Below, in pieces: positions 18,649-59,680 of a DNA stretch of 64,000 nt (positions are counted from its first letter, which is position 1; each line of letters opens with the position of its first letter). The notes below the pieces were generated by a model. That model was not told the origin of the DNA. It searched no databases and was given only the letters and a program-made list of their open reading frames with translations. Source of the DNA: Tubulanus polymorphus (Eukaryota > Animalia > Nemertea). Location of the stretch: assembly GCF_964204645.1 (NCBI RefSeq), contig NC_134026.1:13204050-13268049 (forward strand), given 5' to 3'. Both the position numbers and the translations under genes were made by a program.

Positions 18649-18867
18649 TTAATCCTCCAAATCATTTAAATCATTAACTTTTTTATTGTTATACTTTCTG
18701 TGATTGTTTCCATTTAACTTCTTTAATTTCTTGCTCAATTTTATATTTTCATTAATCAAATCCTTACTGACATTTTCATAATAAAAGAAAAGCGCAGCCA
18801 ATAAAAATCCACCTGCTACTAAATAATGTTTCAAATCACTTTTCCCAGTTGGGATGAAACCATCCAT
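18649..18867 (-). CDS. Small predicted membrane protein
   Basis: YLVAGGFLLAALFFYY segment; preceded by T-run plus TAAATG like the other element genes. Confidence 0.55.
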   Translation of the reverse strand: MDGFIPTGKSDLKHYLVAGGFLLAALFFYYENVSKDLINENIKLSKKLKKLNGNNHRKYNNKKVNDLNDLED

Positions 18868-18989
18868 TTATTTAAGAGAAAAATTAAACAGTTTATAAAA
18901 TATTTGCTAGTTTTTCATTAAATATTTTATCATCATTTTTAAAATATTAAACTTTTAAATGATTAAATCAAATAACAATTAAATTTACG

Positions 18990-20808
18990 GCCAAACAATT
19001 TATCATTTCAACTGTCAAACAATTTATCATTTCAACTGTCAAACAATTTATCATTTCAACTGTCAAACAATTTATCATTTCAACTGTCAAACAATTTATC
19101 ATTTCAGCTGTCTTATCATTTCAACTGCCAAACAATTTATCATTTCAACTGTCAAACAATTTATCATTTCAACTGTCAAACAATTTATCATTTCAACTGT
19201 CAAACAATTTATCATTCATACTGCCAAACAATTTATCATTTATACTGCCAAACAATTTATCATTTCGACTGTCAAACAATTTATCATTTCAACTGTCAAA
19301 CAATTTATCATTTCAACTGTCAAACAATTTATCATTTCAACTGTCAAACAATTTATCATTTCAACTGTCAAACAATTTATCATTTCAACTGTCAAACAAT
19401 TTATCATTTCAACTGTCAAACAATTTATCATTTCAACAGTCAAACAATTTAACATTTCAACAGTCAAACAATTTATCATTTCAGCTGTCTTATCATTTCA
19501 ACTGTCAAACAATTTATCATTTCAACTGTCAAACAATTTATCATTTCAACTGTCAAACAATTTAACATTTCAACAGTCAAACAATTTATCATTTCAGCTG
19601 TCTTATCATTTCAACTGTCAAACAATTTATCATTTCAACTGTCAAACAATTTATCATTTCAACTGTCAAACAATTTATCATTTCAACTGTCAAACAATTT
19701 ATCATTTAAACTGTCAAACAGTTTATCATTTCGACTGTCAAACAATTTATCATTTCAACTGTCAAACAATTTATCATTTCAACAGTCAAACAATTTAACA
19801 TTTCAACAGTCAAACAATTTAACATTTCAACAGTCAAACAATTTATCATTTCAGCTGTCTTATCATTTCAACTGTCAAACAATTTATCATTTCAACTGTC
19901 AAACAATTTATCATTTCAGCTGTCTTATCATTTCAACTGCCAAACAATTTATCATTTCAACTGTCAAACAATTTATCATTTCAACTGTCAAACAATTTAT
20001 CATTTCAACTGTCAAACAATTTATCATTTAAACTGTCAAACAATTTATCATTTCGACTGTCAAACAATTTATCATTTAAACTGTCAAGCAATTTATCATT
20101 TCAACTGTCAAACAATTTATCATTTCAACTGTCAAACAATTTATCATTTCAACTGTCAAACAATTTATCATTTCAACTGTCAAACAATTTATCATTTCAA
20201 CTGTCAAACAATTTATCATTTCAACAGTCAAACAATTTAACATTTCAACTGTCTTATCATTTCAACTGTCAAACAATTTATCATTTCAACTGTCAAACAA
20301 TTTATCATTTCAGCTGTCTTATCATTTCAACTGCCAAACAATTTATCATTTCAACTGTCAAACAATTTATCATTTCAACTGTCAAACAATTTATCATTTC
20401 AACTGTCAAACAATTTATCATTTATACTGCCAAACAATTTATCATTTCGACTGTCAAACAATTTATCATTTCGACTGTCAAACAATTTATCATTTAAACT
20501 GTCAAACAATTTATCATTTCAACTGTCAAACAATTTATCATTTCAACTGTCAAACAATTTATCATTTCAACTGTCAAACAATTTATCATTTCAACTGTCA
20601 AACAATTTATCATTTCAACTGTCAAACAATTTATCATTTCAACTGTCAAACAATTTATCATTTCAACTGTCAAACAATTTATCATTTCAACAGTCAAACA
20701 ATTTAACATTTCAACTGTCTTATCATTTCAACTGTCAAACAATTTATCATTTCAACTGTCAAACAATTTATCATTTCAACTGTCAAACAATTTATCATTT
20801 TAACAGTC
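18990..20808 (-). repeat. Second 24-bp minisatellite array, inverted, roughly 75-80 units
   Basis: Reverse complement of the 14954-17780 unit, with the same variants. Confidence 0.98.
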
Positions 20809-20979
20809 TATTAGATATTTAAATCATTTAACTCAATTCAATAATTATAATGTAGAATTGTTACGCTTTACGCCAGTTTTTATGTTTAATTGTTTCATAA
20901 TGCTTTGATTTATGTGATTATAAGTATCTGGACAATTTAATTGCTCCGCATAGATAGACAAAAGTAGTGAGATATTCAA

Positions 20980-21384
20980 TTAATTAAAAAAAATTATTTT
21001 TTTGCTTTTTTCTAAAATATTAGTCCATTTTTTTATTATCAATTTTGGAATTTCAGAAGTATTTTCATTTTTGATAGCAGTTGTTTCAGAATTATAAATA
21101 TCATGAATTTTATTTGATTTCTTATACCAATTACGCCCTATCAAAATGAATACCATTACAAATCCAACTGTAAAATATAAATATTTATCAAATATTCTAT
21201 TACCAGAAGGAGTAGAAATAACAATATTTTCACTATTATTAAAATTTTCATTATTTATTCCTTCTTTTTTAGCTTTTTTAAATTCTTGTGATTTAATTCC
21301 TAATTGTCGAGACCATTCATTTTGTTTCGGACTTCTCAGGCTTTTCTTCACAGTTAATTCCTTCACTTCTTCCACTTCGCTCAT
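20980..21384 (-). CDS. Small membrane protein (homologous to 38029-38397 and 47511-47858)
   Basis: Basic RSxKQxEWSRQLG motif plus one TM segment, shared by three copies. Confidence 0.65.
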   Translation of the reverse strand: MSEVEEVKELTVKKSLRSPKQNEWSRQLGIKSQEFKKAKKEGINNENFNNSENIVISTPSGNRIFDKYLYFTVGFVMVFILIGRNWYKKSNKIHDIYNSETTAIKNENTSEIPKLIIKKWTNILEKSKKIIFFN

Positions 21385-21921
21385 TTATTGTAGAAAAATT
21401 TTTACTTTCAATATTTGAAAATGTTATAACTCCAGTTGATAATAACGTCATAAATCCACCTAATTGAAATGATAAATATCCAATCCATTTATTTAATTCA
21501 GTCATGACTAAATAATCATTTTTTAAATCGGAATATAATCTTTTTTCATCTTGAATTGGCAGCATATAATTACATAATTTACTATAACCTTTTACTACAT
21601 TTTCTGATATCGCGTCATTATTCTAGCTGTTCTCGCGGTTTCATAAATCTTAAATAATCTAATAATTTCATCTGATTTCATTGTATCTAATTCATTATAA
21701 GTTAAATTTTTACCGATAAAATTTTTACATTTTCCAGATGCTATTAATATTTCTAATTGATGTTTACAATAAAGATAATATTCATAATTATTATTTGTTG
21801 TAACATTATTTAAAGCACCATCATCTGGAGTTAATTTTGTTTCTGTTATTCCAAAATCATCTAAAGATTTTTCAATTGGAACATCACCATTTTTAGATTT
21901 TATTTTCTTTTCACCTCCCAT
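21317..21921 (-). pseudogene. Conserved hypothetical protein, frameshifted (intact at 47791-48396)
   Basis: Two ORF pieces together equal the 201-aa ORF of copy C. Confidence 0.75.
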
Positions 21922-22072
21922 TTATATAACAAAAAAATTAGTTGTGATGTTGCAACTAGAATTTAACTAGAATGTAAATAGAATTCAACTAGATTAACAA
22001 GCTAGTTGAAATATTGTTGTTTTTATTTATTTATTGTTAGATCTAGTTGATTTTTGTTCCAACTACCAATAA

Positions 22073-23128
22073 CTAGAATTCAACTAGAATGGAGCTAAAA
22101 TATACTAAAATAAATTGAATTACTAAAATTATTATTAATTCTTCGTTCATAAAATGTTTTCTAATATCTGGCCATTGATCTATCATTCTCATTCCTTGAC
22201 AAAATATTTTATTTGCTATTCCTTCGATAGTTATTTCTACTTTTGCTATTTCAGGATTATAATAATTATCAACCTTTATTGCGCCATTAGAATATGTTGC
22301 AATGGTAAAAAATATTAATATACCTTTAATAGATCTTCTTGGGAAGTTAATATTCTCATTAATTATTTCATCATTTGCATTAATAGTTACAGTTTTAAAT
22401 TTATCAATATAATCATATAATAATGAAAATCCTTGATTGTATTGAGTTTGAATTGTGCTAGCAATATTTTCATTAGTTACTGTGTAATATTCTAAACATA
22501 TATTCGATAATTTATAACCCATATCTTTAACAACGCTAGATAATACAATTTCATTTACAGGAGCAAATGTTACCTCAAATATAATATCTTCTTGAATTAC
22601 ATATTTATATAAAGGTGCATTATTATTTATCAATTCAAAGTCTAATGGAATTTTATATTTGCTTCCATAAATCTTTTTAATCAAATTATCTGCGGCACGA
22701 GTTACTATTGCGTCATTAGCTCCTGATCTTAATTTATTATGGTTTTCCGATTGAATGCCTTGAAATATCATATTATTTCTATTTTCTTTAGTTAACCATA
22801 AATCTTTATAATGCATAAATAAATTATAATCATCTAATGACAAAACTGTTTCTGGACCAATCTTTATTGTTAATTTTTTAATCAAATATCTTCCAACATT
22901 ATCAACAACATAATTATTATTATTACCGATTACTTTTATATCGGCTGATAAATGAATACTATTTGGAACATAAAAAGTATTTTGTGTTAATCTAGGAATT
23001 CTAACATATAAAGTTTCATCAGGATTAATATTAGAAGGGTTATGAGTGATTATATGATGTGATCTTTCTGCTTTAATAGCATTAGATATTCTATGATTCT
23101 TAGAAGGATTGATATAACTCCCACTCAT
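22073..23128 (-). pseudogene. Putative major capsid protein (double jelly-roll), C-terminally truncated
   Basis: Beta-strand-rich, about 415 aa in fuller copies, highly conserved among copies, adjacent to integrase and ATPase in copy C. Homology stops near 22140. The fold is inferred, not computed. Confidence 0.6.
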
Positions 23129-23148
23129 TTATTTAACAAAAAAATTAA

Positions 23149-24549
23149 TCATTTATTTTTGTTGGTAAACATTTTCATGTTTACCAACCCAAAAATAATA
23201 GCACTTACAACTGTAATTAAAAATAAAATAATATGTTCAGCAGCAAAGTTAATAATATTTCCTGCTGATTTCAATATAAAACCAACAATTGATGCAATAA
23301 CTCCGGGCAATGCTGCAGCAGATTTTTTAGATAGTTCCCATAAATATTTTGCTAATTTCTTTAAACCATCTTTAACTTTATCTTGTATAGAATCTGGGGG
23401 TTTATCTGGTTTATTGGGAGTAGGAGTAGATTTCAGTGAATTTGATATAGCTAAACCGATTGTTGTGAATACCATAGTTACAGATGTTAGAATTGAAATA
23501 ATTGTTATACCTTCTAATTTAAATAATAATTTTATTCTATCTTAATGATATTTCAGAATTTGGTTTCATTTGATATCTTTTAAAAACATCTTTTAATCTT
23601 TTAAAATTATTACCATATTCTTTTAATAATATATCTCTTTCTTTTTTCTGTAATTCTAAATTATCTTTTAAATTATTAATTTCTTTTTCTAAACGTAATT
23701 CTTTTTGCCTATATTCTATTTCATCAATTACTTGTCGTTCTAAATCAGACTTTAATTGTTCTATTTCCTAATTTTTATCAGTTAATTCTTTTTCTAAAGT
23801 TCTAATTTTAAAATCTCATACTTTTATCGTGCGCAAATTTATCAGCTTTATTTCTTATATTAATAATTTCTCTAATTGCTTTATCAGAAAATATATTTAA
23901 ATCTTCTAATTGTTGATCTGTTGCATCAAGTAATCCATTCGGTAAAAGTTTTTCAGTTTGAACTTCGTTTGATTTAATTTTACTAGTTTTGGAAGTTTTA
24001 TTCTGTTCAGAAGTTGTTTCTGTTTTTGAATTATTTTTGATTGTTTCAAATAATTCATTAATTCTTTGTTTAAATACTCTTTCATTTTTAATACTTTCTT
24101 CTTGTGTTACATTTTCTATTTCATTACTATTTCTTATTCTTTTAATTCTAGATAGGTCTAACTTAAGCAAAGTTGATTCTTTTAATATTTTGTTTTGTTT
24201 TTTATAAGAGATATCAATATAATAATCACCGGTCAAATGATAATAATATTCACCATCTAAAAATTCTAAATTTTGTGCTAAAATTCTGGCGTCTCTAAAA
24301 TTTATATTATATTCAGATCTTTCAAATATATGTTGTAATCTACGCGCTTGGTTTATATTTTCTAAATCTTGTCTTATTAAATATGGATTTTCATTTTCAG
24401 GATTTATTCTCGATCTAGATCTTCTATCAAATGCATCTGTTGATGGGGCTTTATAACCACTATCTGTTAAATTAGAATTATATGCTGTTTCATCATTATT
24501 ATCAATATTAGTTTCAGCATCATTATAATCATCTTCATTCTTCTTCCAT
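23149..24549 (-). pseudogene. Acidic-N-terminus coiled-coil protein with C-terminal membrane segments
   Basis: Fragments homologous to 34648-36118 and 51731-53188. Confidence 0.7.
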
Positions 24550-24904
24550 TTATATAATAAAAAAAACTAAAATTTAAAATATAATATTCCTCCTATTACA
24601 GGGCCTATTATAGATTTACCGTCATTAAAACTTGTTTAAAATCAGGCGGTTGTTCTTCAGTTATGCCGTGTTCATCAAAAGTATCCATTCCAATATCTTC
24701 TCCATCTTCTACATCCATTTACATAATAAAAAAATTAAAATCTAAAATATAATATTCCTCCGATTACAATTCCTATACAAGTTATAGCTAATTTAGTATT
24801 TTCATGGGATTTATTTATCATCATCTAGTTTAATTATTTCATGTTGAATATTATCAGTTTTTATATCTTCTGATGTATTGTAATCTTTTATTTTAGAATC
24901 ATTA

Positions 24905-25394: not shown

Positions 25395-26569
25395 TTCTTA
25401 GTTTTACTTTCTGTCGATTGAATATGTTTTTTATTTTTTTCACCTTCCATTAATTTTGGAGCAGTGATAATCTTTTTATTTATATCATTTAATCCAAATG
25501 GATTATTTATTGTTGCAGTTTTAATTAGATTATTATAACCAATTATATTTCCCATCTTTAATACTAAATCATTAGAAATAATTAATAGATTAGGGCCTAT
25601 ACAATAATTTAATCTAATATGTGATTTATCTAAATAATTTTGATATCTTAAAATGTTTTCTGGAATCGATCTATTTTTATCATTATGAATTGAATCTTCA
25701 AATAATACTTTGAATTGTTTCTGTGTATCAAATGATGTATTTAAATTTCCTAGAATACATATCAAATAAGTTCTAATAGATTGATTTATTCTTTGTATAC
25801 CTGATTTTGTAAAACCTTCATTATTTTCTAAAATGAAATAAACCCAACCATTATTGTTTTCTTGTTTTAAATGATCATAAAATTTCGGTAATTTATTGAA
25901 ATCTAATGTTTCTAAATCCTTAGTTTCTATTTTACCATAACCTAATTTATTACTATAGATATTATACAAACTATTAGATGGTATGGGAAGTGCACAATAT
26001 TCTGCAATCTTTTTAGGGCAAGGAAGTGATCTTATTGTTCCAATTTTTGTTCTAAAATCAGAATTATTTATATCTATATTAAATTCATTGCAAATTTTAT
26101 AAAACTTTGATAAATTAATATTATTATCTAATTCTTTAAAATATCTAGATCCTGGTAAAGCACACTCTAATTCATTTAATATTATTCTGATTTGAAAGTA
26201 TGTATGATATCTAAATAAACTTTGAATTAATTTATATTTAGAATTATTCAAATGATCATTCCAACTAATTCCACAACCTGTTGTTGCACAATAAACGGCA
26301 AAATTTAATTGGTTCTGCCAATACGTCATATTAGATTTTAATAACCATTGTTTTTCATCTTTCAATTTTTTGAAATCAATTAAATATACATGAAATATAT
26401 TTTCCATCTTTGCATTACAATTATTAGTTTCAGTAACATAAATTTCTAAATTAGTTAATGAATCTAAAACTTCATTTCTATATGTAATATCTTTATTAAA
26501 ATCTATTGCAGGAATATTATATTTAATTGATTTATTATATTGGAAATCTTTTGGAAAAATATCTACCAT
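25385..26569 (-). CDS. Conserved hypothetical structural-block protein; C-terminal TM anchor cut off by the insertion
   Basis: YWQNQLNFAVYCATTGCGIS and FRxHTYFQIRIILNEL shared with 33331-34632 and 53205-54563. Confidence 0.75.
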   Translation of the reverse strand: MVDIFPKDFQYNKSIKYNIPAIDFNKDITYRNEVLDSLTNLEIYVTETNNCNAKMENIFHVYLIDFKKLKDEKQWLLKSNMTYWQNQLNFAVYCATTGCGISWNDHLNNSKYKLIQSLFRYHTYFQIRIILNELECALPGSRYFKELDNNINLSKFYKICNEFNIDINNSDFRTKIGTIRSLPCPKKIAEYCALPIPSNSLYNIYSNKLGYGKIETKDLETLDFNKLPKFYDHLKQENNNGWVYFILENNEGFTKSGIQRINQSIRTYLICILGNLNTSFDTQKQFKVLFEDSIHNDKNRSIPENILRYQNYLDKSHIRLNYCIGPNLLIISNDLVLKMGNIIGYNNLIKTATINNPFGLNDINKKIITAPKLMEGEKNKKHIQSTESKTKKQR

Positions 26570-27017
26570 TTATATAATTAAAAAAATAATAATTTATTAA
26601 TTCTTTTAATAATTTATCTTGTTCTTCAACTGTTATATGGCCATTTAAACTTATAATATAATCTAGTGTATTCTTTAATTTATTAATGTCTTTTATATTA
26701 GTTTTAATTTTTTCTTTATTACTTTTTATATTTAATTTTGAACTTATACCAGTTAAAACACTTGAACTTAAACCTAATACACCAATTGATATAGTTAAAG
26801 GTGTTAATGGGCTGAATATTGCTAAAAATGTTATTACAAAACTAATTGTAACCGAACCACTTATAATCAAATAATATATAATTTTACTTTTTAAATATTT
26901 TTTCTTTTTAACTTTTAAATCACTTTCAAATTCTAATATTTGTTTTTCTAAATATATTTTTAATTCAGTTTTACTTATATCATGAGGAATAATATCAATA
27001 TCAACTTTATCATCCAT
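26535..27017 (-). CDS. Two-TM membrane protein (homologue of 32880-33314)
   Basis: Near-identical to 32880-33314 with two hydrophobic segments; the stop codon is altered here. Confidence 0.7.
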   Translation of the reverse strand: MDDKVDIDIIPHDISKTELKIYLEKQILEFESDLKVKKKKYLKSKIIYYLIISGSVTISFVITFLAIFSPLTPLTISIGVLGLSSSVLTGISSKLNIKSNKEKIKTNIKDINKLKNTLDYIISLNGHITVEEQDKLLKELINYYFFNYINGRYFSKRFPI

Positions 27018-27379
27018 TTATTTAGAAAAAAAATTACTAATTAGTAAATTTATATGCTACAAATATAACAATAACTAATCCGCCTTAAATCCAAATTATT
27101 TCATATTTCTGTTGTTCTTTACCTGGGGTATAATAATCTGATATTGTAGGTTTATGTAGATGCAATTTTTCTTTATTGGTTACCGCGTTATATAAACTCA
27201 TTGCATCATCAACTGATTGAAAATCTCTATGTGAAATCTTCTGATCATATAATTCCTTGTTAATATGATCCATATAGTTTTGTCTTTTTTCTCTATATTC
27301 TTCTGCTGCTTTATTGTATTTTTCTAATGCTAAGTTATGTCTTCTTTGTTCTCCTAATGAACTATTTTTATCAATATTA

Positions 27380-29975
27380 TCAACCACATGTTTTGTTATT
27401 CCTTTTATCTTTTTAGCTTCATGATCTTTTGTTCTGTAACCATACATTTTACTTCTTATCCCAACAAATTCAATCATTTCATCACCCCCTAATTCATCTT
27501 TAAATTTACCAGGAATCTTTTTATCATCATTGCTAAATAGTTCATGATCTTTGGGATAATTGCTAAAATCAAAATGATGTTTTAATGTTTTTAAGTCTTT
27601 TGTTATGTCATTTGTCTTGATTTTTAGTATGTAGGCGTCCGTATTTTTGGCAATTAATGGAAATCCACAGTTGAATGTACCATCTTCAGTTGATTAATCA
27701 TATACATAATCTGATGAGTTACATATTTCAAATAAATCTTTAACTTCTTCTGTTAACTCATTTTCTACATGGTTTAAATTAAAGCAATTTGGTTTAGATT
27801 TAATCAATCCAATATTCATATTAAAACCTAATGAATTGCATAATATATTAACTTTTCCTTTTTGTGCAAAGGTTATCTTTTTATACTTAATAAATTTTTT
27901 AGTACCATCTGCTGCGTAGAATCCAATGAAGAACCATTTTCTTAAATTATCTTTTGCATTTAATACATAATCTGGAACTATCTTTTCTTTTGTTGAAGTA
28001 TTACTTTTCACTATTGCATGAATATAGAATTCATCATTATATTTTATAGCAAAATCTTTAGGATTATTTACAAGTATTCTATAAACTGCTGATGATTTCA
28101 TAACATCCATGATTCTAAATGTTTTATGTGAATAAACTTCTTCACAGAATTTCTTAATTCTTTCTAATAATTTCAAGTCTTGATTGCATAAATACCAACA
28201 ATATTTATTACCCCAAACATAATTATACACACCTGCTGAACCATCACCCATGAAAAATCCTTTGATAAAATATTCTTTTTCTTCTAATGTTTCAGGTTCT
28301 ATATTATAAATATTATCAATTATTTCATCAAATGACATATGATTTATTCTTTGGAAAAATCTTTTATGTAATAATTCATCTCCAATTTTTATATCAGTTG
28401 GTTTTATTTCATCGCCATTTCGTTCAATTGAACTATGATCTTCTGTAACATCTACAAACCCTAATTTAGTTCTAACTCTATAGATTTTCTTATTTGTTTT
28501 ATGCCTAATAATATTCTTCAATTTTTTCCATCCATTTCTTGTCCAAACATCCATTAAACCATTTATTTGTATTAATTCTTTTTCACCATATGAAATATAA
28601 CATTCATTTTGTTTTGGAATTATTTCTGAAATTCTTCTGATCAATATTTTATCATTACATTTTAATAATATTGGGGTGACAGCTGTTACAGAATCAAAAT
28701 ATAATATTTCAATATGCTTTTCCCCAAAAAGTGGTTGTAAAACATTATAATAAAAATCATACATTAATAATTTTGATACTTCTAAAACAGTTGAACCAAT
28801 GAATATAGGTTTATTAGATTTCATTGACGTTCTTTTTAATTTAACTACTGTTAAATAATCTTCAAATCTTTTTATTTCCTAAATGTCTAGGACTTGATTG
28901 TAAATGTCTTAATCGTTCAGAATTAATTACTAATTCAATATCATTTCTATTTCTAATATTTTCACATGTGTTACCATAAAAACTATTATTAATTAATTTG
29001 AAGAAATCTTTTTCAAAATCTGTTTTTGATATGGTTCTCTGTTGAGTATTGAAATCTATATATTTTTCTAACCACTTCGATTGATTAAATTCAATATATC
29101 TATGTACTTTCTTTAATTTCATTCCTTGTTTTAGATAAAATTTTAACATTCTATAATGAACAATATAATTATATTTATTATTTTGAGTAAGTATTAATTT
29201 TTCTGTAAAAACATGATCTTTCTGTTTTATTTTCTTCTGGTATTCATTTGAATAACTATCATCTACAGTTAAATGTTCTGGGCAATAAGGTAAGTTTCTT
29301 GTTTTAAACTTTATATTTTCAGGATATTCTAAATCAACTACAAAGAAATAACCAATTGGTGCTTCATCTTTTAAACTCGCAATTGCGCTTTCCCAATCAG
29401 TTTTATCATCATTTTCAACTTCTGTTAATATAAAATTTTTATATGGTTGAGGTTGCATCATCGCCCAACCATATTAATTATTGGCGTCACTATATAATAA
29501 TTTATATTCATCATTTGCTTTAAAATACCTATCTCCCATAACACCACTAATTCCACCTCTAATTGATCTTTCAAATAATAAAACCATGTCTGGTTCTTTT
29601 AATAAATCTAATTCTACATTTGTGTATTTTAAACCACATTGCCAGGTTAAACCAGGACTAGAGTAGCAATAACAAGGATCAACATTAAAATGATTCAAAT
29701 TAACTTCTCTAAATTTTTCAAATATGTCAGCCAATATCATAACATCTGATTTTAAATGTAAATCAACTAATTCGCCATGATTTTTCATCTTAAAATGGTT
29801 CCAAATATTTAATGTTCTATTAAACACTTCGTCTTTCACATACTCCTCTTTTAATTGATCATAAAATTGATCTTTTAATAATTCTGTTACATTAAAATCA
29901 TTGTGTGTTTTATAAAATGAATAAGGAATTGCACCTTTATATCTCAATAATTTAAAATCTTGTTCATTTGGATAA
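27380..29975 (-). pseudogene. polB: Protein-primed family B DNA polymerase (pPolB), partial, intein-containing
   Basis: SSPGLTW, IRGGIS, motif A DANN*YGWAM, motif B FFKLINNSFYG, motif C LYFD-[intein]-TDA, then IPGKFKDE and EFVGIRSKMY. Stops at 29474 and 27694; frameshift near 28860. Confidence 0.93.
27643..28692 (-). mobile_element. Intein with LAGLIDADG homing endonuclease (350 codons, one premature stop)
   Basis: Block A SVTAVTPILL, block B VDVTEDHS, blocks C/E FIKGFFMGDGS and FFIGFYAADGT, block F YVYD*STEDGTFNCG, block G LIAKN then +1 Thr. Removing it restores YFDTD. Confidence 0.93.
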
Positions 29976-31055: not shown

Positions 31056-31072
31056 GAAAATATGTAAAATAA

Positions 31073-31827: not shown

Positions 31828-31844
31828 TTTTTTTCACTATACAA

Positions 31845-32863: not shown

Positions 32864-32879
32864 TTTTTTTGCTAAATAA

Positions 32880-33314: not shown

Positions 33315-33330
33315 TTTTTTAATTATATAA

Positions 33331-48396: not shown

Positions 48397-48424
48397 TTAT
48401 ATAACAAAAAAATTAGTTGTGATG

Positions 48425-48700: not shown

Positions 48701-48765
48701 TTAAATAAATTCATATTTAAATGGGTGTTGTAATCTAAATAGTAATTTTGATCTTTTAATATTTT

Positions 48766-49308
48766 TCAACTTATCCATATATTCATTATGTAAATATGTG
48801 GAATAATATCATTTTCCTCAAGTGCATTTTTCATCGATTTTCTATCTTTATTGTAGAATAAAACTAGAAATCTAATGTTTTCTCTAAAGTCTTTAACAAT
48901 TGAATTATATTTTTGGTTTAAAACCCAAGTTGTTATCCCAAAATGTCTGCCAGAAAAAGCTAAATAGCATAACTCACTCTCTCTAACTTTTGAATCATGT
49001 AGATTAGCACAATCATCTATAATGAATAATGTATTTGATCCTTTATAAATATCAATTGCTATTTTAATACAATTATCTAAATTTTCTTTTACTGTTTTAG
49101 GATCTAATATAATAAATTTATTATTTCTAGTAATATTTCTATCATAAGTTTGATTAAATTCATATGTTGGGCAAAATAATACTATATTATCAAAATAGTT
49201 TTTATAAACAGTTTCTAATAAATTTAATATAAAATAAGTTTTTCCACAATTTGTTACACCAGAAATTAACATATTATGAGGCTCAAATATAAATAATTCC
49301 TTATTCAT
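48766..49308 (-). CDS. A32/FtsK-HerA-like genome packaging ATPase
   Basis: Walker A SGVTNCGKT, Walker B LFIIDD, arginine-finger GRH and sensor Q (LNQKY). The C-terminus may be frameshifted. Confidence 0.88.
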   Translation of the reverse strand: MNKELFIFEPHNMLISGVTNCGKTYFILNLLETVYKNYFDNIVLFCPTYEFNQTYDRNITRNNKFIILDPKTVKENLDNCIKIAIDIYKGSNTLFIIDDCANLHDSKVRESELCYLAFSGRHFGITTWVLNQKYNSIVKDFRENIRFLVLFYNKDRKSMKNALEENDIIPHIYIMNIWIS

Positions 49309-50436: not shown

Positions 50437-50466
50437 TTATATATCCTTAATTTTAACTTTATATTT

Positions 50467-51710
50467 CTAATATTGAATTCTATCTAATTGTGAATTTACA
50501 ATATTTAATTGTGCGTCAGATATAATATAAATGTGCATTTTAAAATTTAAGCTTCCTTTTTTCTTTTTCATAAATAATTGTATTCCATCTTTAGTGTTCT
50601 GTAGTCTTTTCCCAGAACCATGTAATGAATTATCCTCTGTTGTTCTAAAATCTAACCATAATGCATATTTATTGCCGGTATAATAATCAATTTGATTAAT
50701 ATTACAATTTTCAAATGATTTTACTTTTTCATTCATAAAATGTTTTCTAATTTCTGGCCACTGATCTATCATTCTCATTCCTTGGCAAAATATTTTATTT
50801 GCTATTCCTTCGATAGTTATTTCTACTTTTGTTATTTCAGGATTATGATAATTATCTACCTTTATTGCACCATTAGAATATGTTGCAATGGTAAAAAATA
50901 TTAATATACCTTTAATAGATCTTGGGAAGTTAATATTCTCATTAATTATTTCATCATTTGCATTAATAGTTACAGTTTTAAATTTATCAATATAATCATA
51001 TAATAATGAAAATCCTTAATTGTATTGAGTTTGAATTGTGCTAGCAATATTTTCATTAGTTAATGTGTCATATTCTAAACATATATTTGATAATTTATAA
51101 CCCATATCTTTAACAACGCTACATAATACAATTTCATTTACAGGAGCAAATGTTATCTCAAATATAAAATCTTCTTGAATTACATATTTATATAAAGGTG
51201 CATTATTATTTATCAATTCAAAGTCCAATGGAATTTTATATTTGCTTCCATAAATCTTTTTAATCAAATTATCTGTGGCACGAGTTACTATTGCGTCATT
51301 AGCTCCTGATCTTAATTTATTTAGCTTTCCGATTGAATACCTTGAAATATCATATTATTTCTATTTTCTTTAGTTAACCATAAATCTTTATAATGCATAA
51401 ATAAATTATAATCATCTAATGAGAAAACTGTTTCTGGACCAATCTTTATAGTTAATTTTTTAATCAAATATCTCCCAACATTATCAACAACATAATTATT
51501 ATCATGATCAATTACTTTTATATCAGCTGATAAATAAATACTATTTGGAACATAAAAAGTATTTTGTGTTAATCTAGGAATTCTAACATATAAAGTTTCA
51601 TCGGGATTAATATTTGAAGGATTATGTGTAATTATGTGATGTGATCTTTCTGCTTTAATAGCATTAGATATTCTAGAAATCTTAGAAGGACTTACATAAC
51701 TCCCACTCAT
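50467..51710 (-). pseudogene. Putative major capsid protein, disrupted
   Basis: Three ORF pieces homologous to 36149-37396. Confidence 0.65.
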
Positions 51711-51730
51711 TTATTTAACAAAAAAATTAT

Positions 51731-53188
51731 TTATTTTTTATTATTTTTTTCTTGATATCTTTTTGATATCATATTCACTAACCCAAAAATAATAGCACTT
51801 ACAACTGTAATTAAAAATAAAATAATATGTTCAGCAGCAAAGTTAAGAATATTCCCAGCAGATTTCAATATAAAACCAACAATTGATGCAATAATTCCTG
51901 GTAAAGCTGCAGCAGATTTTTTAGATAGTTCCCATAAATATTTTGCTAATTTCTTTAAACCATCTTTAACTTTATCTTGTATAGAATTATTATCATTCGG
52001 GGGTTTATCCGGTTTATTGGGAGTAGGAGTAGATTTCAAAGCATTTGATATTGCTAAACCAATTGTTGTAAATAACAAAGTTACAGCTGTTAGAATTGAA
52101 AGAATTGTTATTCCTTCTAATTTAAATAATAACTTTATGCTATCTTTCAATGATATTTCAGAATTTGGTTTTATCAATAAATCTTTGAAAATAACTTTTA
52201 ATCTATTAATATTATAATCATATGATTTTAATAATAATTTAATTTCTTCTTTTTGTAATTCTATGTTATATCCTAAATCATCTTTTTCTTTTTCTAAACG
52301 TAATTCTTTTTGCCTATATTCTATTTCATCAATTACTTGATGATCTAAATCAGACTTTATTGTTCTATTTCTTTATTTTTATCAGTTAATTCTTTTTCTA
52401 AACTTCTAATTTTAAAATCTCATACTTTTATCATGCGCAATTTTATCAGATGCAAGTCTTATACATTTAATTTCTCTAATTGCTTCAACAGAAAATATAT
52501 CATTTCAATCTTCTAATTGTTGAACTGTTGCATCAATTAATCCATTCGGTAAAAGTTTTTCAATTGGAACTTTATTTGATTTAAGTTTACTAGTTTTGGA
52601 AGTTATATTCTGTTCAGAAGTTGTTTCTGTTTCTGATTTCTTTTTGATTATTTCAAATAATTCATTAATTCTTTGTTTAAATACGTCTATATTATCATCT
52701 CTTTCTTTTTGTGTAACATCAGTTATTTCATTACTATTACTTATTCTCTTAATTCTAAATGTTTCTAAATTTTTCAAAGTTGATTCCGCTAATATTTTTA
52801 GTTTTGTCCTTTGATTAGTGATATCAATATAATAATCACCTTTTAAACGATAATAACATTTACCATTATCTAAAAATTTTAATTTATATGCTAAAGGTCC
52901 AACGTTTTTATCATTTATGTTAAATTCAGAATTTTCAAATATATGTTTTAATTTAGGTATTTTGGTTAAATTATCTAAATCTTGTTTTACTAAATGTGGG
53001 TCTAAATTTTCAGGATTTAATTGTGATTCTGCATTTTTAATATAATCAGGCATATTTAAATTATTATTATATTCTGGCTCATTACCATCATTAAAACTTG
53101 TTTCACTAAAATCAGGTTGTTGTTCATCAGTTATGCCAGGTTCATCAAAATTATCCATTCCAATATCTTCTCCACCTTCTACATCCAT
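51731..53188 (-). pseudogene. Coiled-coil protein with C-terminal membrane segments
   Basis: Homologous to 34648-36118 but with a different N-terminus. Confidence 0.72.
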
Positions 53189-53204
53189 TTATATAATAAA
53201 AAAA

Positions 53205-54563
53205 TTAAAATTTAAAATATAATATTCCTCCTATAACAATTCCTATACAAGTTAAAGCTAATTTAGTATTTTCATGGGATTTATTATCATCATTTTGTTT
53301 AATTATATCATGTTGAATATTATCAGTTTTAATATTTTCTGTAGTATTGTAATCTTTTATTTTAGAATCATTATTTAATTTAATATTCTTAGTTTTAGTT
53401 TCTGTTGATTGAATGTGTTTTTTATTTTTTCACCTTCCATTAATTTTGGAGCAGTAATTATCTTTTTATTTATATCATTTAATCCAAATGAATTATTTAT
53501 TGTTGCAGTTTTAATTTGATTATTGTAACCAATTATGTTTCCCATCTTTTATACTAAATCATAAGAAATAATTAATAGATTAGGGCCTATACAATAATTC
53601 AATCTAATATGTGATTTATCTAAATAATTTTGATATCTTACAATGTTTTCTGGAATCGATCTATTTTTATCATTATGAATGGAATCTTCAAGTAATACTT
53701 TGAATTGATTTTGTGTATCAAATGATGTATTTAAATTTCCAATTATTGGGGATCTTGTTTCAACCTGTGATCCTAGAATACATATCAAATAAGTTCTAAA
53801 TAGATTGATTTATTCTTTGTATACCTGATTTTGTAAAACCTTCATTATTTTCTAAAATGAAACCCAACCATTATTGTTTTCTTGTTTTAAATTATCATAA
53901 AATTTCGGTAATTTATTGAAATTTAATGTTTCTAAATCCTATAGATTCTATAGATATTATAAGGCTATTAGATGGTAAGGGAAGTGCACAGTATTCTGCA
54001 ATCTTTTTAGGGCAAGGAAGTGATCTTATTGTTCCAATTTTTGTTCTAAAATCAGAATCATTTATATCTGTATTAAATTCATTACAAATTTTATAAAACT
54101 TTGATAAATTAATATTATTATCTAATTCTTTAAAATATCTAGATCCTGGTAAAGCGCACTCTAATTCATTTAATATTATTCTGATTTGAAAGTATGTATG
54201 AAATCTAAATAAACTTTGAATTAATTTATATTTAGAATTATTCAAATGATCATTCCAACTAATTCCACAACCTGTTGTTGCACAATAAACGGTAAAATTT
54301 GATTGGTTCTGCCAATACTTCATATTAGATTTTAATAACCATTGTTTTTCATCTTTCAATTTTTTAAAATTAATTAAATATACATGAAATATATTTTCCA
54401 TCTTTGCATTAAAATTATTAGTTTCAGTAACATAAATTTCTAAATTAGTTAATGAATCTAAAACTTCATTTCTATATGTAATATCTTTATTAAAATCTAT
54501 TGCTGGAATATTATATTTAATTGATTTATTATATTGGAAAGCTTTTGGAAAACTATCTACCAT
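53205..54563 (-). pseudogene. Conserved hypothetical structural-block protein
   Basis: Pieces homologous to 25385-26569, with frameshifts. Confidence 0.72.
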
Positions 54564-54579
54564 TTATATAATAAATAAA

Positions 54580-55014
54580 TTAATAATTTATTAATTCTTT
54601 TAATAATTTATCTTGTTCTTCAACTGTTATATGGCCATTTAAACTTATTATATAATCGAGTGTATTCTTTAATTTATTGATTTCTTTTATATTAGTTTTA
54701 ATTTTTTCTTTATTACTTTTTATATTTAATTTTGAACTTATACCAGTTAAAACACTTGAACTTAATCCTAATACACCAATTGATATAGCTAAAGGTGTTA
54801 ATGGACTGAATATTGCTAGAAATGTTATTACAGAACTAATTGTAACCGAACCATTAATAATAAGATAATATATAATTTTACTTTTTAGATATTTTTTCTT
54901 TTTAACTTTTAAATCACTTTCAAATTCTAATATTTGTTTTTCTTAATATATTTTTAATTTTGTTTTATTTATATCATGAGGAATAATATCAATATTATCA
55001 ACTTTATCTTCCAT
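54580..55014 (-). CDS. Two-TM membrane protein copy (possibly disrupted)
   Basis: Nucleotide homology to 32880-33314 on the minus strand. Confidence 0.6.
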
Positions 55015-55409
55015 TTATCGAAAAAAAATTACTAATTAGTAAATTTATATGCTAAAAATATAACAATAACAGTTTCGCCTAAAATCCAAATTATTTCATA
55101 TTTCTGTTGTTCTTTACTTGGGGTATAATAATCTGATATTGTATAGGAGGAATATATTTTTGTTTTTCCAAATAATCAATAGTTAAATTAGATAAAGTAA
55201 CTGCTAATGTTAATTTTAAAATATCAAATCTATCAACATTAACACTTCCCATTTTGAATACTTTTTTAATACCATTGAATAACCAACAGTTCCAACTGAT
55301 AGTAAGGCGCCATTATATAATCCAGTTATTATCCACTTATTATCACTCATTAATTAATCAAAAAAATTATCATCAAAATAATCATCAAAATATTTAGTTA
55401 TCTTAGTTC

Positions 55410-55793
55410 TGTAACCGGCTGGTTGTTGTATCGGCAGGCTGGCTGGGGAACTAGCATTTACACCAGCGGTACATGATTCCATCCATCAGGAACAACAAGG
55501 CAGTTAAACCTTATATGTACAATCTTTATTGCATCCCGGAATGAGAATGATTATCATAGCTTTACATAGTCTTTATATACAGAATCATGAGTATAATGTG
55601 AGAACTAGGTGTCAGACAAGTTGTAGACATCAGGACGCACAAACAAACACCTAGTGACATGTTTGAGAGACATTAATTAATTATCGATGAGCACTGACTA
55701 TAGCTAATCATCGTGAAAACATGTTGAATAATGTCACATGTTGATTACGACCTTACGAAGCACATATTGACACTATAGTCATAAGTTATATTA

Positions 55794-55845
<52 letters not shown>

Positions 55846-57988
55846 AATATGTAGTAGAGCTATGAAATGTTATGAACTGTTCGATATGACATTGTAGATC
55901 TATATGATTATGAAATATGCAAATTATATCAGGGTGACAGATGCCCCCTTGTCCAATTAAATTTTGTCCTCAAAATTTGCGGAAAACGCAGATACTATAA
56001 GTTCATCAAAACTCCTTCCATCGCGAAAACATGAAAGATTGACTTTCACCGCGCAAAAATGTGCAAACGCTGGACAGTAACATCCGGATTATCAGTCATT
56101 CACGAAAGAGTCACATGTTGTTGTCGTTATATACGGACGATGCGATGATACGTTAACTGTAATTTTGAATGATCTGCAAACGATCCCCGAATTCTGGTTG
56201 GTTCTGCGACGAACCGAAGTAGCGACGTGTTGTGTAGTTATAGCGTCCCGAAGATCAGTTGGTGATGCAAGTTGCAAGTAGTACGCATTTCTCTGTTTTG
56301 AAGATCTTTCGATTACTGACTGGAAATAACTTCGTGACACAATGATAGTAACATGCAACATTTGACATCAGAGCAGAGTTCAGGCAATGACACAACACAA
56401 ATACAGTTACCATTGTCAACCAAAAGGAAAAAATTATCATCATCCAAAATAAGTGGTCAGAAGTAAATAAAGAATAACCATAGTAATTGAGCAAAGATGA
56501 CACCACCAGCATAACTGAACTGTTTTAACACCTATCATCGCAGTCTCAATTAATCCACGTTATATTATATCATTGATAAATTCATACCGTACCGTACACT
56601 GTTATGTCTCGTATTAGATTTACAATGACGTTATTTGCGTGTTTTCTACGAAAGATTTCATGCACTCTACTTAAAATGACTAGTATATATTAATTGAACG
56701 TATGAACTATCCGATCTTTGAACCGTTCAGGGCGTTAATAAACTGAAAATATACGTACGAGTAATAAGCTGATCAATTCATCGCTGATATCCATATGATA
56801 TCCTGGAAAGCTTAAGAAAACCTACTGTAGCTACTACTGAGTTTCGAAGAAATAGATTTTAAACGAGAAGCGTACTGACTTTGTGTGCCAGGAGGTGTTT
56901 CATACCAAGGCCATGCAGGGGGAGCGAACCGCCCAAATAAAACATAGTATTCTAAGACTCCCTGGTCGTTGAAACGTGTTGATACGGCTCGAGCGGCAGT
57001 AGGTATAATTTTTTAGAGCTCGGTTTCGGTGGGAGGCCTTTCATTTTCCAAGATGACATGATATATACCCCATACATGTTCAAGACTTTCTCCGTAATCA
57101 CTTACTTCAAACCAATCTCGTTTTGATGCCCGGTACCATGGACTGTCATGGTAATATTTTACGAATAGCACATTATTTTGAAATTTGGTAGCAACAACCG
57201 TTTTTCCTGTAGGGCATGGACATAATGCTCGACGATTTCCCGTCCGAATAGCCTCTTCGATAGCGACATTACTTGAATCTGAACTACTCTTAACGCTATC
57301 CTGATTCGTATGATCTTGGTGAGTTTTCGATCGAGCTGAACAATATACACTATTTACATTCTCATTATTTGATGAGTCTTCATTAGACATCTGATTATCA
57401 AATTCCTATGGCTGACAACAAGTTACCATAATGTGTTGTATCAACCAAAACAGCAGCGATTTCGGCGATCAGCACGGTCTTGTCACAAGTGTAGTTGAAT
57501 GCGATCTTCTATTTTGTGGTATGTTTCAGTCACAATCCGTATATCAGCAGCTTCATCTGTACTTGTGTAAGTCACGAGGACTTAAATTTGGGTTCTCCAC
57601 TATCTGTAACCGGCTGGTTGTTGTATCGGCAGGCTGGCTGGGGAACTAGCATTTACACCAGCGGTACAGGATTCCATCCATCAGGAACAACAAGGCAGTT
57701 AAACCTTATATGTACAATGTTTATTGCATCCCGGAATGAGAATGATTATCATAGCTTTACATAGTCTTTATATACAGAATCATGAGTATAATGTGAGAAC
57801 TAGGTGTCAGACAAGTTGTAGACATCAGGACGCACAAACAAACACCTAGTGACATGTTTGAGAGACATTAATTAATTATCGATGAGCACTGACTATAGCT
57901 AATTATCGTGAAAACATGTTGAATAATGTCACATGTTGATTACGACCTTACGAAGCACATATTGACACTATAGTCATAAGTTATATTA

Positions 57989-58043
<55 letters not shown>

Positions 58044-58099
58044 AATATGTAGTAGAGCTATGAAATGTTATGAAATATGCAAATTATATCAGGGTGACA
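55410..58099 (-). mobile_element. Non-autonomous LTR retroelement (about 2.7 kb) nested in Maverick copy C
   Basis: Direct repeats 55410-55939 and 57605-58099 bounded by TGT...ACA, each with a (TTA)n tract. On the minus strand, a PBS-like TAGTGGAGAA follows one LTR and purine tract GGACAAGGGGG precedes the other. No gag/pol and no clean TSD. Confidence 0.7.
57013..57390 (-). CDS. Hypothetical protein inside the LTR element
   Basis: 125-aa ATG-initiated ORF about 200 bp downstream of the putative PBS; no recognised domain. Confidence 0.4.
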   Translation of the reverse strand: MSNEDSSNNENVNSVYCSARSKTHQDHTNQDSVKSSSDSSNVAIEEAIRTGNRRALCPCPTGKTVVATKFQNNVLFVKYYHDSPWYRASKRDWFEVSDYGESLEHVWGIYHVILENERPPTETEL

Positions 58100-58405
58100 G
58101 ATTAATTCAACATTTATTTCATTAATAGTTTCATTTGTATATATTTCAATTATTATTTTTTTAATATCATCGATGATAAAATCTTTATCTAATTCATAAA
58201 ATCTTAAAGATTCTCTAATTAAATTAGTAATATTTTCTACATTTAAAGTTTCTTTATCTATTGTTTTTTCATACTCAAATGTTGTTTCATTAGAAAATGC
58301 AATATTTTTGATATGTGTAATTACATCATCAATGTTAAATTTCATTTCTTTCTCACGTTTAAAATCAAACCCAAAACATATACTCGGTCCAACAGTTATA
58401 TTCAT
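58058..58405 (-). CDS. Hypothetical protein (homologue of 31845-32147)
   Basis: Near-identical; its end runs into the LTR insertion. Confidence 0.65.
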   Translation of the reverse strand: MNITVGPSICFGFDFKREKEMKFNIDDVITHIKNIAFSNETTFEYEKTIDKETLNVENITNLIRESLRFYELDKDFIIDDIKKIIIEIYTNETINEINVELICHPDIICIFHNIS

Positions 58406-58421
58406 TTATATAGTGAAAAAA

Positions 58422-59182
58422 TTACTCTTTACGTCTTATAACTAGTTCATAAATTACAGGAAAGTTATTCAAATCAATTAAATAACCATTATGATTTCTT
58501 ATTTCTAATTTAAAATTATTGAAATGTGGAATACAAGGTTTAAAATCACATTCAGCTAAATTATAATTTATTTGCGTTCCAAATTGTTTAACATTTTTTA
58601 ATGGTAAAATATTTGATATACTAGAATTATAAATTGTATCTTTAGTTGCTTCAAATGTTTTTGTTGGGTCAATTAAATTGCAATAAATATAAAAATGTGT
58701 AAAAGGTATTAAGTTTGATCTACCTTCTGCGTATGCTGTAACAATATCTGGGTTAATTCCTAACAGTTTACCTAAAGGTTTTCTTACTGTAAATTTAAAT
58801 TGGCTAATTCATTAGCTAACCTAATCTTTATTTTATTAGAACTATCACTTTTTAAAATTCTAATACTAAATCCGGAATCACTTCCTAATTTAGCTCGAGC
58901 TTTTCTATTAATTTCTTGTGCTAATGTATCTAAATTATATAATCCTGGTTTTAAATATATAAAAAACCATTTATTCCTTTTTTTGCAAAAGATTGAAAAA
59001 ATTAAATGTTCTAGACTTTTATCCGATATATTGTAAAATGAGTTACATAAACTTATATTTACTAATTTTAAATCAACACAATTCTTAAATTCTCTATCTA
59101 ATTGTATTAGTAAATTATGTGATTTATAATTTGTTAGTTTTCTAGAATCAACAAATATTCTGTATTCTTTTAATTCTACCAT
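58422..59182 (-). pseudogene. Putative minor capsid (penton) protein, frameshifted
   Basis: Homologous to 31073-31827. Confidence 0.65.
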
Positions 59183-59230
59183 TATTTATAACATAAAAAA
59201 ATTAATTTTAATAAAATTTTTCGTAAATAA

Positions 59231-59680
59231 ATGGATGAGAAGATACCATGCAAAATTTGTGGTGAACTTCTAAGAAAAAGTAATATGGCTCGACATATGA
59301 AAAAACATGATGAAAATTATAAACCCCCTAAACTAAACTGTCCAAAATGTAATAAATTATTCTCAAGAAATTATGTTAAAAAACATTCAGAGAAGTGTAA
59401 AATTAATGGCGCAACGGCTAATGTTGATAGTATTGAAAGTAATAGTAATTCTGTTGAAGTTGAACCTGAAATTATTTGGAAAAGACCTTTCTTATTCTAT
59501 GATAAGGATAATATAAAAGATCATTTCTGTAAGCCTTGTCGAATAAAATATAGCCCTGAAAATATAGAAGATTGGGAGAATCATCAATTTCGTAAAGCAC
59601 ATATAGATAAAATTTCTAATAAATTTGAAGCAGAATTCAATGAAAGAAAAAATAGTTTATTAGAAAAAAATAAAATATGA
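59231..59680 (+). CDS. C2H2 zinc-finger protein
   Basis: CKICGELLRKSNMARHMKKH, CPKC..H..C and CKPC..H..H; T-run plus TAAATG start. Confidence 0.75.
   Translation: MDEKIPCKICGELLRKSNMARHMKKHDENYKPPKLNCPKCNKLFSRNYVKKHSEKCKINGATANVDSIESNSNSVEVEPEIIWKRPFLFYDKDNIKDHFCKPCRIKYSPENIEDWENHQFRKAHIDKISNKFEAEFNERKNSLLEKNKI

Follow-up and report, generated by a model that had tools for sequence, protein, structure and literature searches.

Late promoters of poxviruses and their possible use by smaller elements

According to an excerpt of PMC5294985, late promoters of poxviruses consist of a T-containing core, a spacer of 5-7 bp and TAAAT(G/A) at the initiation site, leaving no 5' untranslated region (UTR). 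Similarly, an excerpt of PMC11980589 describes TAAAT with a G over the start codon and, ten nucleotides upstream, a conserved T amid further T, and an entomopoxvirus gene with TAAATG has also been reported (PMC3061580). The vaccinia virus polymerase slips on three template T at TAAAT, which leads to 5' poly(A) leaders, and such leaders are likewise made by yeast linear plasmids, whose initiator is TAAAN and which encode a poxvirus-like polymerase themselves (PMC6211774). Virophages carry the late promoter of their helper virus, as reported for mavirus with Cafeteria roenbergensis virus (CroV) and for Sputnik with mimivirus (PMC6723459). Here, a sequence block with the layout of a poxvirus late promoter is described for the genes of Maverick/Polinton elements in a stretch of 64,000 nucleotides from the genome of the nemertean Tubulanus polymorphus (assembly GCF_964204645.1, contig NC_134026.1, positions 13,204,050 to 13,268,049 of the forward strand), which is referred to as the window.

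A preliminary description of the window had given the late layout of vaccinia virus as a T/A run, a spacer of about 6 bp and TAAAT(G), and had pointed to mavirus sharing the late promoter of its helper CroV; the former agrees with the excerpts of PMC5294985 and PMC11980589, and the latter precedent is borne out by PMC6723459. As far as these excerpts go, the block agrees with the published poxvirus layout within one position. Shared features are TAAAT(G) on the start codon, a T-rich core that is located 5-8 nt upstream and peaks at -9/-10, the lack of room for a 5' UTR, and tightly packed, intronless genes. In contrast to poxviruses, the block is found here on Maverick genes without a recognisable polymerase of their own, and while the vaccinia core spans about 20 bp, the core in the window consists of 5-8 T with AA in front.

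With virophages, the window element shares its nature as a small element with major capsid protein (MCP), ATPase and integrase (and, in the case of mavirus, the protein-primed DNA polymerase pPolB), the integration into the host genome, and one promoter motif, putatively of helper type in the window, ahead of most or all genes. However, virophages have protist hosts, mimivirid helpers and other motifs, whereas the host is an animal, the motif is of the poxvirus type and the helper is hypothetical in the present case. Occlusion bodies of entomopoxviruses have yielded Polinton-like viruses (Barth et al. 2024, PMC11296320), which shows that such partnerships exist in animals. Their likeness to the window element lies in being small, Polinton-related and tied to an animal poxvirus, and one relative is integrated in an insect genome. 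Compared by description, AHEV_PLV1 and Ca_PLV1 have no detectable integration gene, unlike the window element with its rve integrase, while two other occlusion-body elements have a tyrosine recombinase and a primase-helicase; their capsid proteins show a high degree of divergence. The main text of PMC11296320 mentions neither promoter nor motif nor TAAAT. The pGKL plasmids of yeast resemble the element in their protein-primed replication, the TAAAN initiator at gene starts and, if the reading preferred below is correct, the poly(A) leaders formed by slippage, but they have their own polymerase and capping enzyme, an early-poxvirus-like upstream element and no capsid genes. Adintoviruses and animal Mavericks have the same pPolB with an endonuclease VII insert, rve integrase, MCP and A32 ATPase, but the other sampled Maverick lineages are without the TAAATG block; in the adintovirus paper, the word promoter does not occur.

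Literature searches, with subscription journals and preprint supplements outside their scope, yielded no paper in which promoters of Polintons or Mavericks are connected with TAAAT(G). For Mavericks of vertebrates, helper dependence and a role against iridoviruses resembling that of virophages have been suggested, with neither sequence nor promoter evidence (PMC8097293), and a preprint ties poxvirus relatives to Trichomonas polintons via a shared KilA gene, the word promoter being absent from it. Promoter sharing between virophage and helper is already known, but an animal true Polinton with the poxvirus layout on all genes would be new.

A start-codon block in the Maverick copies of the window

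The window harbors three to four rearranged and decayed copies of one Maverick, which are 87-93% identical according to self-BLAST and of which three are designated A, B and C in the following. Because viral hallmark genes are present in several copies that are all decayed, the window represents an integrated Maverick/Polinton family in an animal genome, with all copies decaying.

In the preliminary description, 17 starts had been listed at which TAAATG overlaps the ATG behind a T-run. All 17 have TAAATG on the first ATG of their open reading frame (ORF) with a T-run 5-8 nt upstream, which is interrupted in one case. These starts are located at 32205, 32438, 32880, 33331, 34648, 36149, 46171 and 59231 on the plus strand and at 18867, 21921, 23128, 26569, 27017, 48396, 51710, 53188 and 58405 on the minus strand. 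Regarding the T-runs, the start at 33331 is preceded by six T instead of the seven given previously, those at 18867 and 59231 by five T, and that at 32438 by the interrupted run. The motif at 32205 also stands, but the gene behind it is a 39-aa remnant. The genes for integrase (50436), ATPase (49308) and endonuclease VII/HNH (39907) do indeed have TAAATG without a T-run, and pPolB (61170) starts with TAAAATG.

The pattern of at least five T, 5-8 arbitrary nucleotides and TAAATG occurs 21 times in 37,435 viral bases when both strands are counted, as opposed to 2.32 ± 1.49 times (maximum 9) in 300 dinucleotide shuffles. Over the whole window, TAAATG as such shows just a slight excess (155 occurrences versus 120 ± 11 expected), so that the signal of the motif is positional. 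Among viral ORFs of at least 80 aa, 22 of 44 starts have TAAATG, compared to 95 of 1407 other ATGs (Fisher P = 6e-14) and to none of 14 ORF starts in the non-viral (host) parts. Since the instances in the window are paralogous and, with copies of 87-93% identity, not independent, the ORFs were grouped into about 16 gene families. These about 16 families have TAAATG in at least one copy, the exceptions within the window being pPolB with TAAAATG, the family F9 with TAAATAATG and the ORF of an intein.

A GC content of the viral DNA of about 0.24 and the presence of the same genes three to four times would favor an explanation of the motif as an artefact of AT-richness and repeated copies. However, shuffling yields 2.3 instead of the observed 21 instances, and the contrast is retained in AT-matched controls and in relatives with a GC content of 0.36-0.44. 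The flat T profile at TAAATG sites outside of starts and the mapping of the motif to a clade (both see below) argue against an artefact as well. The explanation by composition and copy number is refuted and its remaining probability is negligible.

Conservation of the block in one Maverick clade

The family of MCP homologues is large, comprising 88 proteins for the MCP of copy A and 159 related loci that were confirmed in a metagenome scan with the MCP, 80 of which were kept. In IMG/VR, no relatives of the MCP were found. The nearest 15 loci (L001-L013, L059 and L062) have an MCP identity of 49-77% and a GC content of 0.20-0.44. In these loci, TAAATG is present at 52 of 73 ORF starts but only at 96 of 2243 other ATGs. 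The same applies to the relatives with a GC content of 0.36-0.44 (L006-L008), with 7 of 12 starts versus 10 of 371 other ATGs. The 65 more distant Maverick loci, in contrast, have TAAATG at 10 of 599 starts, and at 1 of 59 starts when the GC content is <0.34. A scan of IMG/VR for the 21-nt block resulted in 27 single matches, none of them from a contig with the start-codon pattern, and in a control with AT-rich IMG/VR contigs chosen for one block match, 13 of 155 starts had TAAATG.

The conservation was also followed by gene family, considering families that occur in at least two sources (window and related loci) and members with at least 80% of the longest length. Of these near-full-length members, 55 of 66 start with TAAATG and two more have TAAAT within 12 nt. 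The other nine comprise seven ORFs inside or antisense to real genes, one intein ORF and one integrase (L005) starting with AAAATATG. In a quick maximum likelihood tree of the MCP with 60 rows, which consist of the window and 59 of the 80 loci (21 loci with an MCP ORF of <330 aa were left out), every TAAATG locus falls into one group of 15 rows with an SH-aLRT (Shimodaira-Hasegawa-like approximate likelihood ratio test) support of 99, and the neighbouring groups are without the motif. Judged from these sequences, the TAAATG motif belongs to one Maverick clade and is independent of base composition. We regard this comparison with relatives as the decisive evidence for the motif. Altogether, the excess at viral starts of the clade is clear when measured against shuffled and AT-matched controls, host ORFs and other Mavericks.

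Two other AT-rich lineages have start-abutting motifs of a different kind. In one (L018, L020, L023, L029, L032, L034 and L058), AAAA precedes the ATG at 12 of 30 starts, and in the other (L051, L052, L054, L060, L072, L074 and L075), ATAT, TATA, GTAT or ATAG precedes it at 20 of 37 starts. No start-abutting motif is present in GC-rich Maverick lineages.

Anatomy of the block and its position between genes

The profile of the block was determined from 74 distinct TAAATG starts, which remained from 79 after removal of identical 25-mers, with the T of TAAATG as position 0. The frequency of T rises from 62% at -12 over 71% at -11 and 79% at -10 to 89% at -9. A is frequent at -15 (81%) and -14 (72%) as well as at -3 (72%) and -1 (85%). 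Beyond about -20, there is only AT-richness and no conservation. The block conserved in the clade thus measures about 20 nt, and it ends on the start codon of nearly every gene. At 169 TAAATG sites that are not starts, the frequency of T is 29-45% at each position from -20 to -1. As for the tract upstream, 37 of the 74 starts have a T-run (at least five), 17 an A-run (at least five) and 20 neither. For the 37 starts with a T-run, the spacer between the run and TAAATG has 6 nt in 19 cases, 7 nt in eight, 8 nt in six, 5 nt in three and 1 nt in one.

Genes with and without a T-run, which the preliminary description had set apart, do not form a clean gene class, because orthologues of the MCP carry either tract depending on the lineage: a T-run is found in the window, L001-L005 and L009-L011, and an A-run in L008 and L013. 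For the same reason, a division into temporal gene classes by T-run and A-run was rejected.

The block often lies within the end of the upstream gene because the genes are tightly packed. Gaps between genes on the same strand are ≤30 nt in 30 of 49 cases, and the TAA in front of the T-run is often the stop codon of the upstream gene. Divergent genes have their ATGs 19 nt (L002), 28 nt (L010) or 30 nt (L011) apart, and both genes of each pair start with TAAATG. Genes are too densely packed for separate upstream promoters.

An alternative would be a block that acts post-transcriptionally on a long polycistronic RNA, be it as splice acceptor, by stop-restart from TAA to ATG, or as poly(A) signal of the upstream gene. 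The T-run resembles a polypyrimidine tract, AATAAA is contained in 34 of the 74 starts, and the TAAATG of the ATPase gene is formed by the stop codon of the integrase gene and the ATPase start. However, AATAAA is missing from the other 40 starts, and divergent gene pairs have the block in both directions. A splice acceptor was dismissed because AG occurs within the 14 nt before the ATG at only 7 of 74 starts, and stop-restart coupling because a same-strand gap of 0 occurs in only 2 of 49 cases. Such a post-transcriptional role is very unlikely.

Host RNA polymerase II (Pol II) is a further candidate for reading the block. In this case, the core TATAAAT/TAAATAAAT would serve as a TATA-like element or initiator, perhaps together with a zinc-finger protein of the element, and the Maverick would be an autonomous, adintovirus-like nuclear virus. 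TATAAA is contained in 29 of the 74 starts, the chromodomain of the integrase and the very high genomic copy number suggest a nuclear life, the element has two zinc-finger genes, and motifs of other kinds abut the starts in sister lineages. Mavericks are not known to encode an RNA polymerase, transcription in the related adenoviruses relies on Pol II, and the TATA-binding protein reportedly targets intermediate and late promoter elements of vaccinia virus. However, if the ATG carried the TATA box, transcripts would begin about 25-30 nt within the ORF, although the conserved start is the first ATG, with MCP homology from residue 2-3 onwards. Conservation at -25 to -35 is lacking, and GC-rich Maverick lineages of the same tree are without the motif. 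A leader of 0-3 nt and a T at -3 are poor for scanning ribosomes according to the rules of Kozak and Cavener. The preliminary view that these genes do not suit host Pol II is in line with these observations: the information ends about 20 nt before the ATG, a T stands at -3 of the ATG, and divergent ATGs are 19-30 nt apart. Transcription by Pol II therefore fits poorly, and we consider it possible but rather improbable.

A poxvirus-type polymerase from a helper virus as candidate reader

Based on its layout, the block is probably a conserved promoter that is read by a poxvirus-type RNA polymerase and late factors from a co-infecting helper virus, for which we assume a probability of roughly 0.5. 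A promoter read in this way would likely make the Maverick a virophage-like parasite of a poxvirus-type virus. In this reading, the T-run, the six-base spacer and TAAATG would form a promoter with its initiator on the start codon, and the AAA of TAAAT would contain the transcription start. Slippage of the polymerase at this site would result in an untemplated 5' poly(A) leader, so that even a start codon at the extreme 5' end could be translated, as in late mRNAs of poxviruses. A leader formed by slippage would be needed because an mRNA starting at its own AUG would otherwise be useless. Since slippage belongs to poxvirus-type polymerases and the element encodes no recognisable one, a helper virus of the poxvirus kind would provide the polymerase and the late factors, comparable to CroV for mavirus and mimivirus for Sputnik. 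Integrated copies would be silent without the helper, as mavirus is without CroV. Of the original claim that these genes are built for a viral RNA polymerase, the motif has proved to be real, tied to starts, conserved in the clade and of poxvirus late layout, while the polymerase itself is what we infer from it.

Pfam and PHROG searches of the ORFs of the element, whose visible part ends inside pPolB, revealed neither an RNA polymerase or capping enzyme nor a firm transcription factor, and none of the ORFs of the window and of L001-L013 is large or similar enough for a polymerase or capping enzyme. This bears on the idea that a poxvirus-like polymerase is encoded by a partner element or by an unseen part of the element itself, as in the cytoplasmic linear plasmids of yeast. 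Those yeast elements combine protein-primed replication, a TAAAN initiator, poly(A) leaders and a poxvirus-like polymerase (PMC6211774), and the right end of the Maverick lies outside of the window, which ends within pPolB. However, neither the window nor L001-L013 have a candidate ORF for polymerase or capping enzyme, and the visible gene set is the usual one of Mavericks, so that a polymerase of this origin is unlikely.

Several points weigh against a promoter that is read by a helper virus. The start of pPolB is TAAAATG, and the upstream tract varies both among starts (37 with T-run, 17 with A-run, 20 with neither) and among MCP orthologues. Because sister lineages have other start-abutting AT-rich motifs (AAAATG and the ATAT/TATA types), a Maverick-intrinsic mechanism that starts transcription at the ATG appears possible. 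The Maverick family is very abundant in the organism and of mixed age, as 7718 contig pieces of one DNA run (X1) match 7.5 kb of copy C (47400-54900) with mixed identities, namely at least 99% for 2247 pieces, 95-99% for 2573, 90-95% for 2185 and <90% for 713; such a germ-line spread in thousands of pieces is more readily imagined for a helper-independent element. TTTTTNT, the early terminator signal of poxviruses, occurs nine times on the sense strands as opposed to 21.8 times in synonymous-codon shuffles (0 of 500 as low), but this depletion gives no specific support because other runs are depleted as well (AAAAANA with 118 versus 155 and TTTTT with 41 versus 69 on the sense strand). As the right end of the element is located beyond the window, a polymerase gene is possible there. 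Finally, helper virus, transcription start site and poly(A) leader are all hypothetical for this locus.

Animal Mavericks might be viruses in their own right, plain transposons or, in the manner of virophages, parasites of large DNA viruses, and the promoter layout, which is found clade-wide and gene by gene, points to poxviruses as candidate helper family. If the helper-read promoter is true, this would be the first true Polinton, with pPolB and rve integrase, to be linked to poxvirus transcription, and the virophage concept would be extended from protists to animals. The block would then also be a sequence marker for such elements and for undiscovered poxvirus-like viruses in invertebrate genomes and metagenomes. 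A more far-reaching version, which we regard as doubtful, would have the clade consist of provirophages that are silent in the germ line and woken by the late machinery of a helper at their TAAATG promoters, forming an inducible anti-poxvirus system similar to mavirus, with the sister motifs (AAAATG and the TATA type) tuned to other families of large DNA viruses. In this context, an excerpt of PMC5294985 mentions AAAAT near start codons of delayed-early genes of iridoviruses and TATATA at late promoters of asfarviruses.

Motif sites of individual genes

The MCP start of copy A, GATTAATTTTTTTGTTAAATAAATG, is located at 23126-23150 on the minus strand and is shared with copies B (36127-36151, plus strand) and C (51708-51732, minus strand). 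The start of the protease-like family F2 has identical sites in copies A (21919-21943) and C (48394-48418; 201 aa), both on the minus strand. The site of F5 (394 aa in copy A) is shared by copy A at 26567-26591 on the minus strand, copy B at 33309-33333 on the plus strand and copy C at 54561-54585 on the minus strand, the T-run of the last one being interrupted by a change from T to A. F6 has a motif site in copy A (27015-27039, minus strand; 160 aa) and in copy B (32858-32882, plus strand), where the upstream gene ends with the TAA ahead of the T-run, and in copy C, the motif at 55012-55036 on the minus strand is followed by a decayed gene with a remnant of 23 aa. Similarly, F4 starts behind the motif in copies B (34626-34650, plus strand) and C (53186-53210, minus strand), and copy A has two sites on the minus strand (24716-24740 and 24547-24571) in front of F4 remnants of 4 aa and 36 aa.

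Further motif sites on the plus strand of copy B belong to the 39-aa ORF (32183-32207) and to F7 (32416-32440), which has the interrupted T-run TTATTTT. F8 has a site in copy C (58403-58427, minus strand), and in copy B, the core of its site at 31823-31847 on the plus strand has decayed to TACAAATG. A gene of 108 aa has its motif at 46149-46173 on the plus strand and an orthologue at 125-469 of L001. A divergent intergenic region of 48 nt at 59180-59233 has a gene start on either side: F9 on the minus strand has a T-run followed by the variant core given above, and a zinc-finger gene on the plus strand has five T followed by TAAATG. A motif with five T also precedes a 72-aa gene between two tandem arrays (18865-18889, minus strand).

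Sites without a T-run are those of the ATPase (49306-49330, minus strand), with TAAATG after AAAATTAA and with the TAA being the stop codon of the integrase gene, and of the integrase (50434-50458, minus strand). The endonuclease VII/HNH gene (39905-39929, minus strand) has an A-run followed by TAAATG, and pPolB (61148-61172, plus strand) has TAAAATG without a T-run.

Maverick copies and gene content of the window

The GC content is 0.30-0.46 in the first 14 kb and in parts of 40-47 kb and 55.4-58.1 kb, and the remaining window is viral. The non-viral parts contain, according to Pfam domains, a BEL/Pao-type retroelement at 214-5543, a Harbinger-type DDE transposase at 9765-10493 and a Myb/MADF ORF. 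No relative of the BEL/Pao pol was found in the PDB. The BEL/Pao-type domains, together with animal names among the homologues of pPolB, suggest an animal as host.

Copy A extends from 20925 to about 29975 on the minus strand, as delimited by self-BLAST, Pfam and the comparison of its pPolB piece with the 1363-aa homologue P0089, to residues 929-1128 of which this piece is 71% identical. Rearrangement has left this copy without ATPase and integrase and with a truncated MCP, and has joined the C-terminal half of pPolB, together with an intein, to the region of the structural genes. A segment of 2.1 kb with ATPase and integrase, corresponding to 48589-50713 of copy C, is gone at 22113-22126, and the MCP is truncated at this very junction. 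An intein-like insert, which includes a LAGLIDADG endonuclease, splits the pPolB of copy A at the catalytic YxDTD motif (27694-28824, minus strand; Pfam Intein_splicing E = 7e-5), and P0089 is continuous across this site.

Copy B (31067-37432, plus strand) was recognised by its ORF families and by 87-88% identity to copy A in self-BLAST. It is oriented head to head with copy A, and frameshifts break its MCP, F4 and F5. Copy C (47408-59187, minus strand; Pfam, self-BLAST and ORF families) has the gene order F1, protease-like F2, A32 ATPase, rve/chromo integrase, MCP, F4, F5, F6, F8 and F9, with a frameshifted MCP. It is interrupted by an insertion at 55408-58074 with a GC content of 0.39, which is bounded by direct repeats of 470 bp with 98.7% identity (55408-55876 and 57603-58074) and looks like a small long terminal repeat element. 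A divergent arm of copy C, delimited by Pfam and homologues, follows at 59231-64000 on the plus strand and consists of a C2H2 zinc-finger gene, a broken zinc-ribbon gene and a pPolB with endonuclease VII insert that runs off the window.

The identity as Maverick is based on the ATPase, the integrase and pPolB. The ATPase at 48766-49308 is of the A32 packaging type (Pox_A32 E = 4e-13 in Pfam). The integrase at 49309-50436 is an rve integrase (PF00665 E = 4.9e-10) with a weak chromodomain match, and the same holds for the integrases of L001, L002 and L005. The pPolB at 61170 is an ORF of 864 aa with an endonuclease VII insert. It has itself no Pfam match to pPolB, but its homologues, many of them named from insects, cnidarians and a mollusc, carry PF03175 (protein-primed DNA polymerase) and PF02945. 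The MCP, a putative double jelly-roll protein, has matches to Capsid_N below threshold only (E = 9e-4 to 3e-3), in three related sets of ORFs. The protease-like family F2 (47791-48396), a candidate for the adenain-like maturation protease, is kept in 31 Maverick loci and has neither a Pfam nor a PHROG match, while the endonuclease VII/HNH gene matches endonuclease VII in PHROG (E = 2.9e-16).

The broken gene at 59682-60272 encodes a U1-type zinc finger and a CxxC...CxxC zinc ribbon and lies upstream of an ORF of 92 aa at 60283-60561, which has a sub-threshold match to Pox_VLTF3 (E = 0.008). A VLTF3 identity of the latter was dropped because the adjoining zinc-ribbon piece of 196 aa has no VLTF3 match, homologue or usable Atlas match.

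In the relative L001, a deoxynucleoside kinase gene at 10340-10981 on the minus strand (Pfam dNK E = 1.7e-31) lies behind a block of T-run and TAAATG. The kinase, which offers no hint at the host, is only distantly like solved deoxynucleoside kinases, and it is a gene of nucleotide metabolism of the kind carried by large DNA viruses.

Tandem arrays, palindromes and foldback elements

Only one end of the element is located within the window, adjoining inverted tandem arrays, and no complete element is present. The arrays consist of the 24-nt unit GACAGTTGAAATGATAAATTGTTT in inverted orientation, with 121.5 copies at 14954-17788 and 78 copies at 18992-20808, and the second array abuts the end of copy A. 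Between them lies a unique stretch of 1.2 kb, in which two small genes start with TAAATG at 18867 and 18665. Next to each array, a further segment of about 120 nt is likewise repeated in inverted orientation (14834-14953 with 20809-20927), and the arrays and flanking inverted repeats may be a terminal repeat of the element or two joined ends.

At the inner end of the first array, a perfect palindrome at 17780-17883 has arms of 41 nt with 100% complementarity and a loop of 22 nt; its DNA fold has -36.4 kcal/mol (z = -13.5). Such a predicted hairpin beside tandem arrays recalls the telomeres of poxviruses, whereas elements with pPolB are expected to have protein-capped ends.

A foldback element similar to miniature inverted-repeat transposable elements, of about 440 bp, is located at 60686-61124 just upstream of pPolB. 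A second copy at 42065-42508 is 93% identical, and a similar palindromic element is found at 13800-14118.

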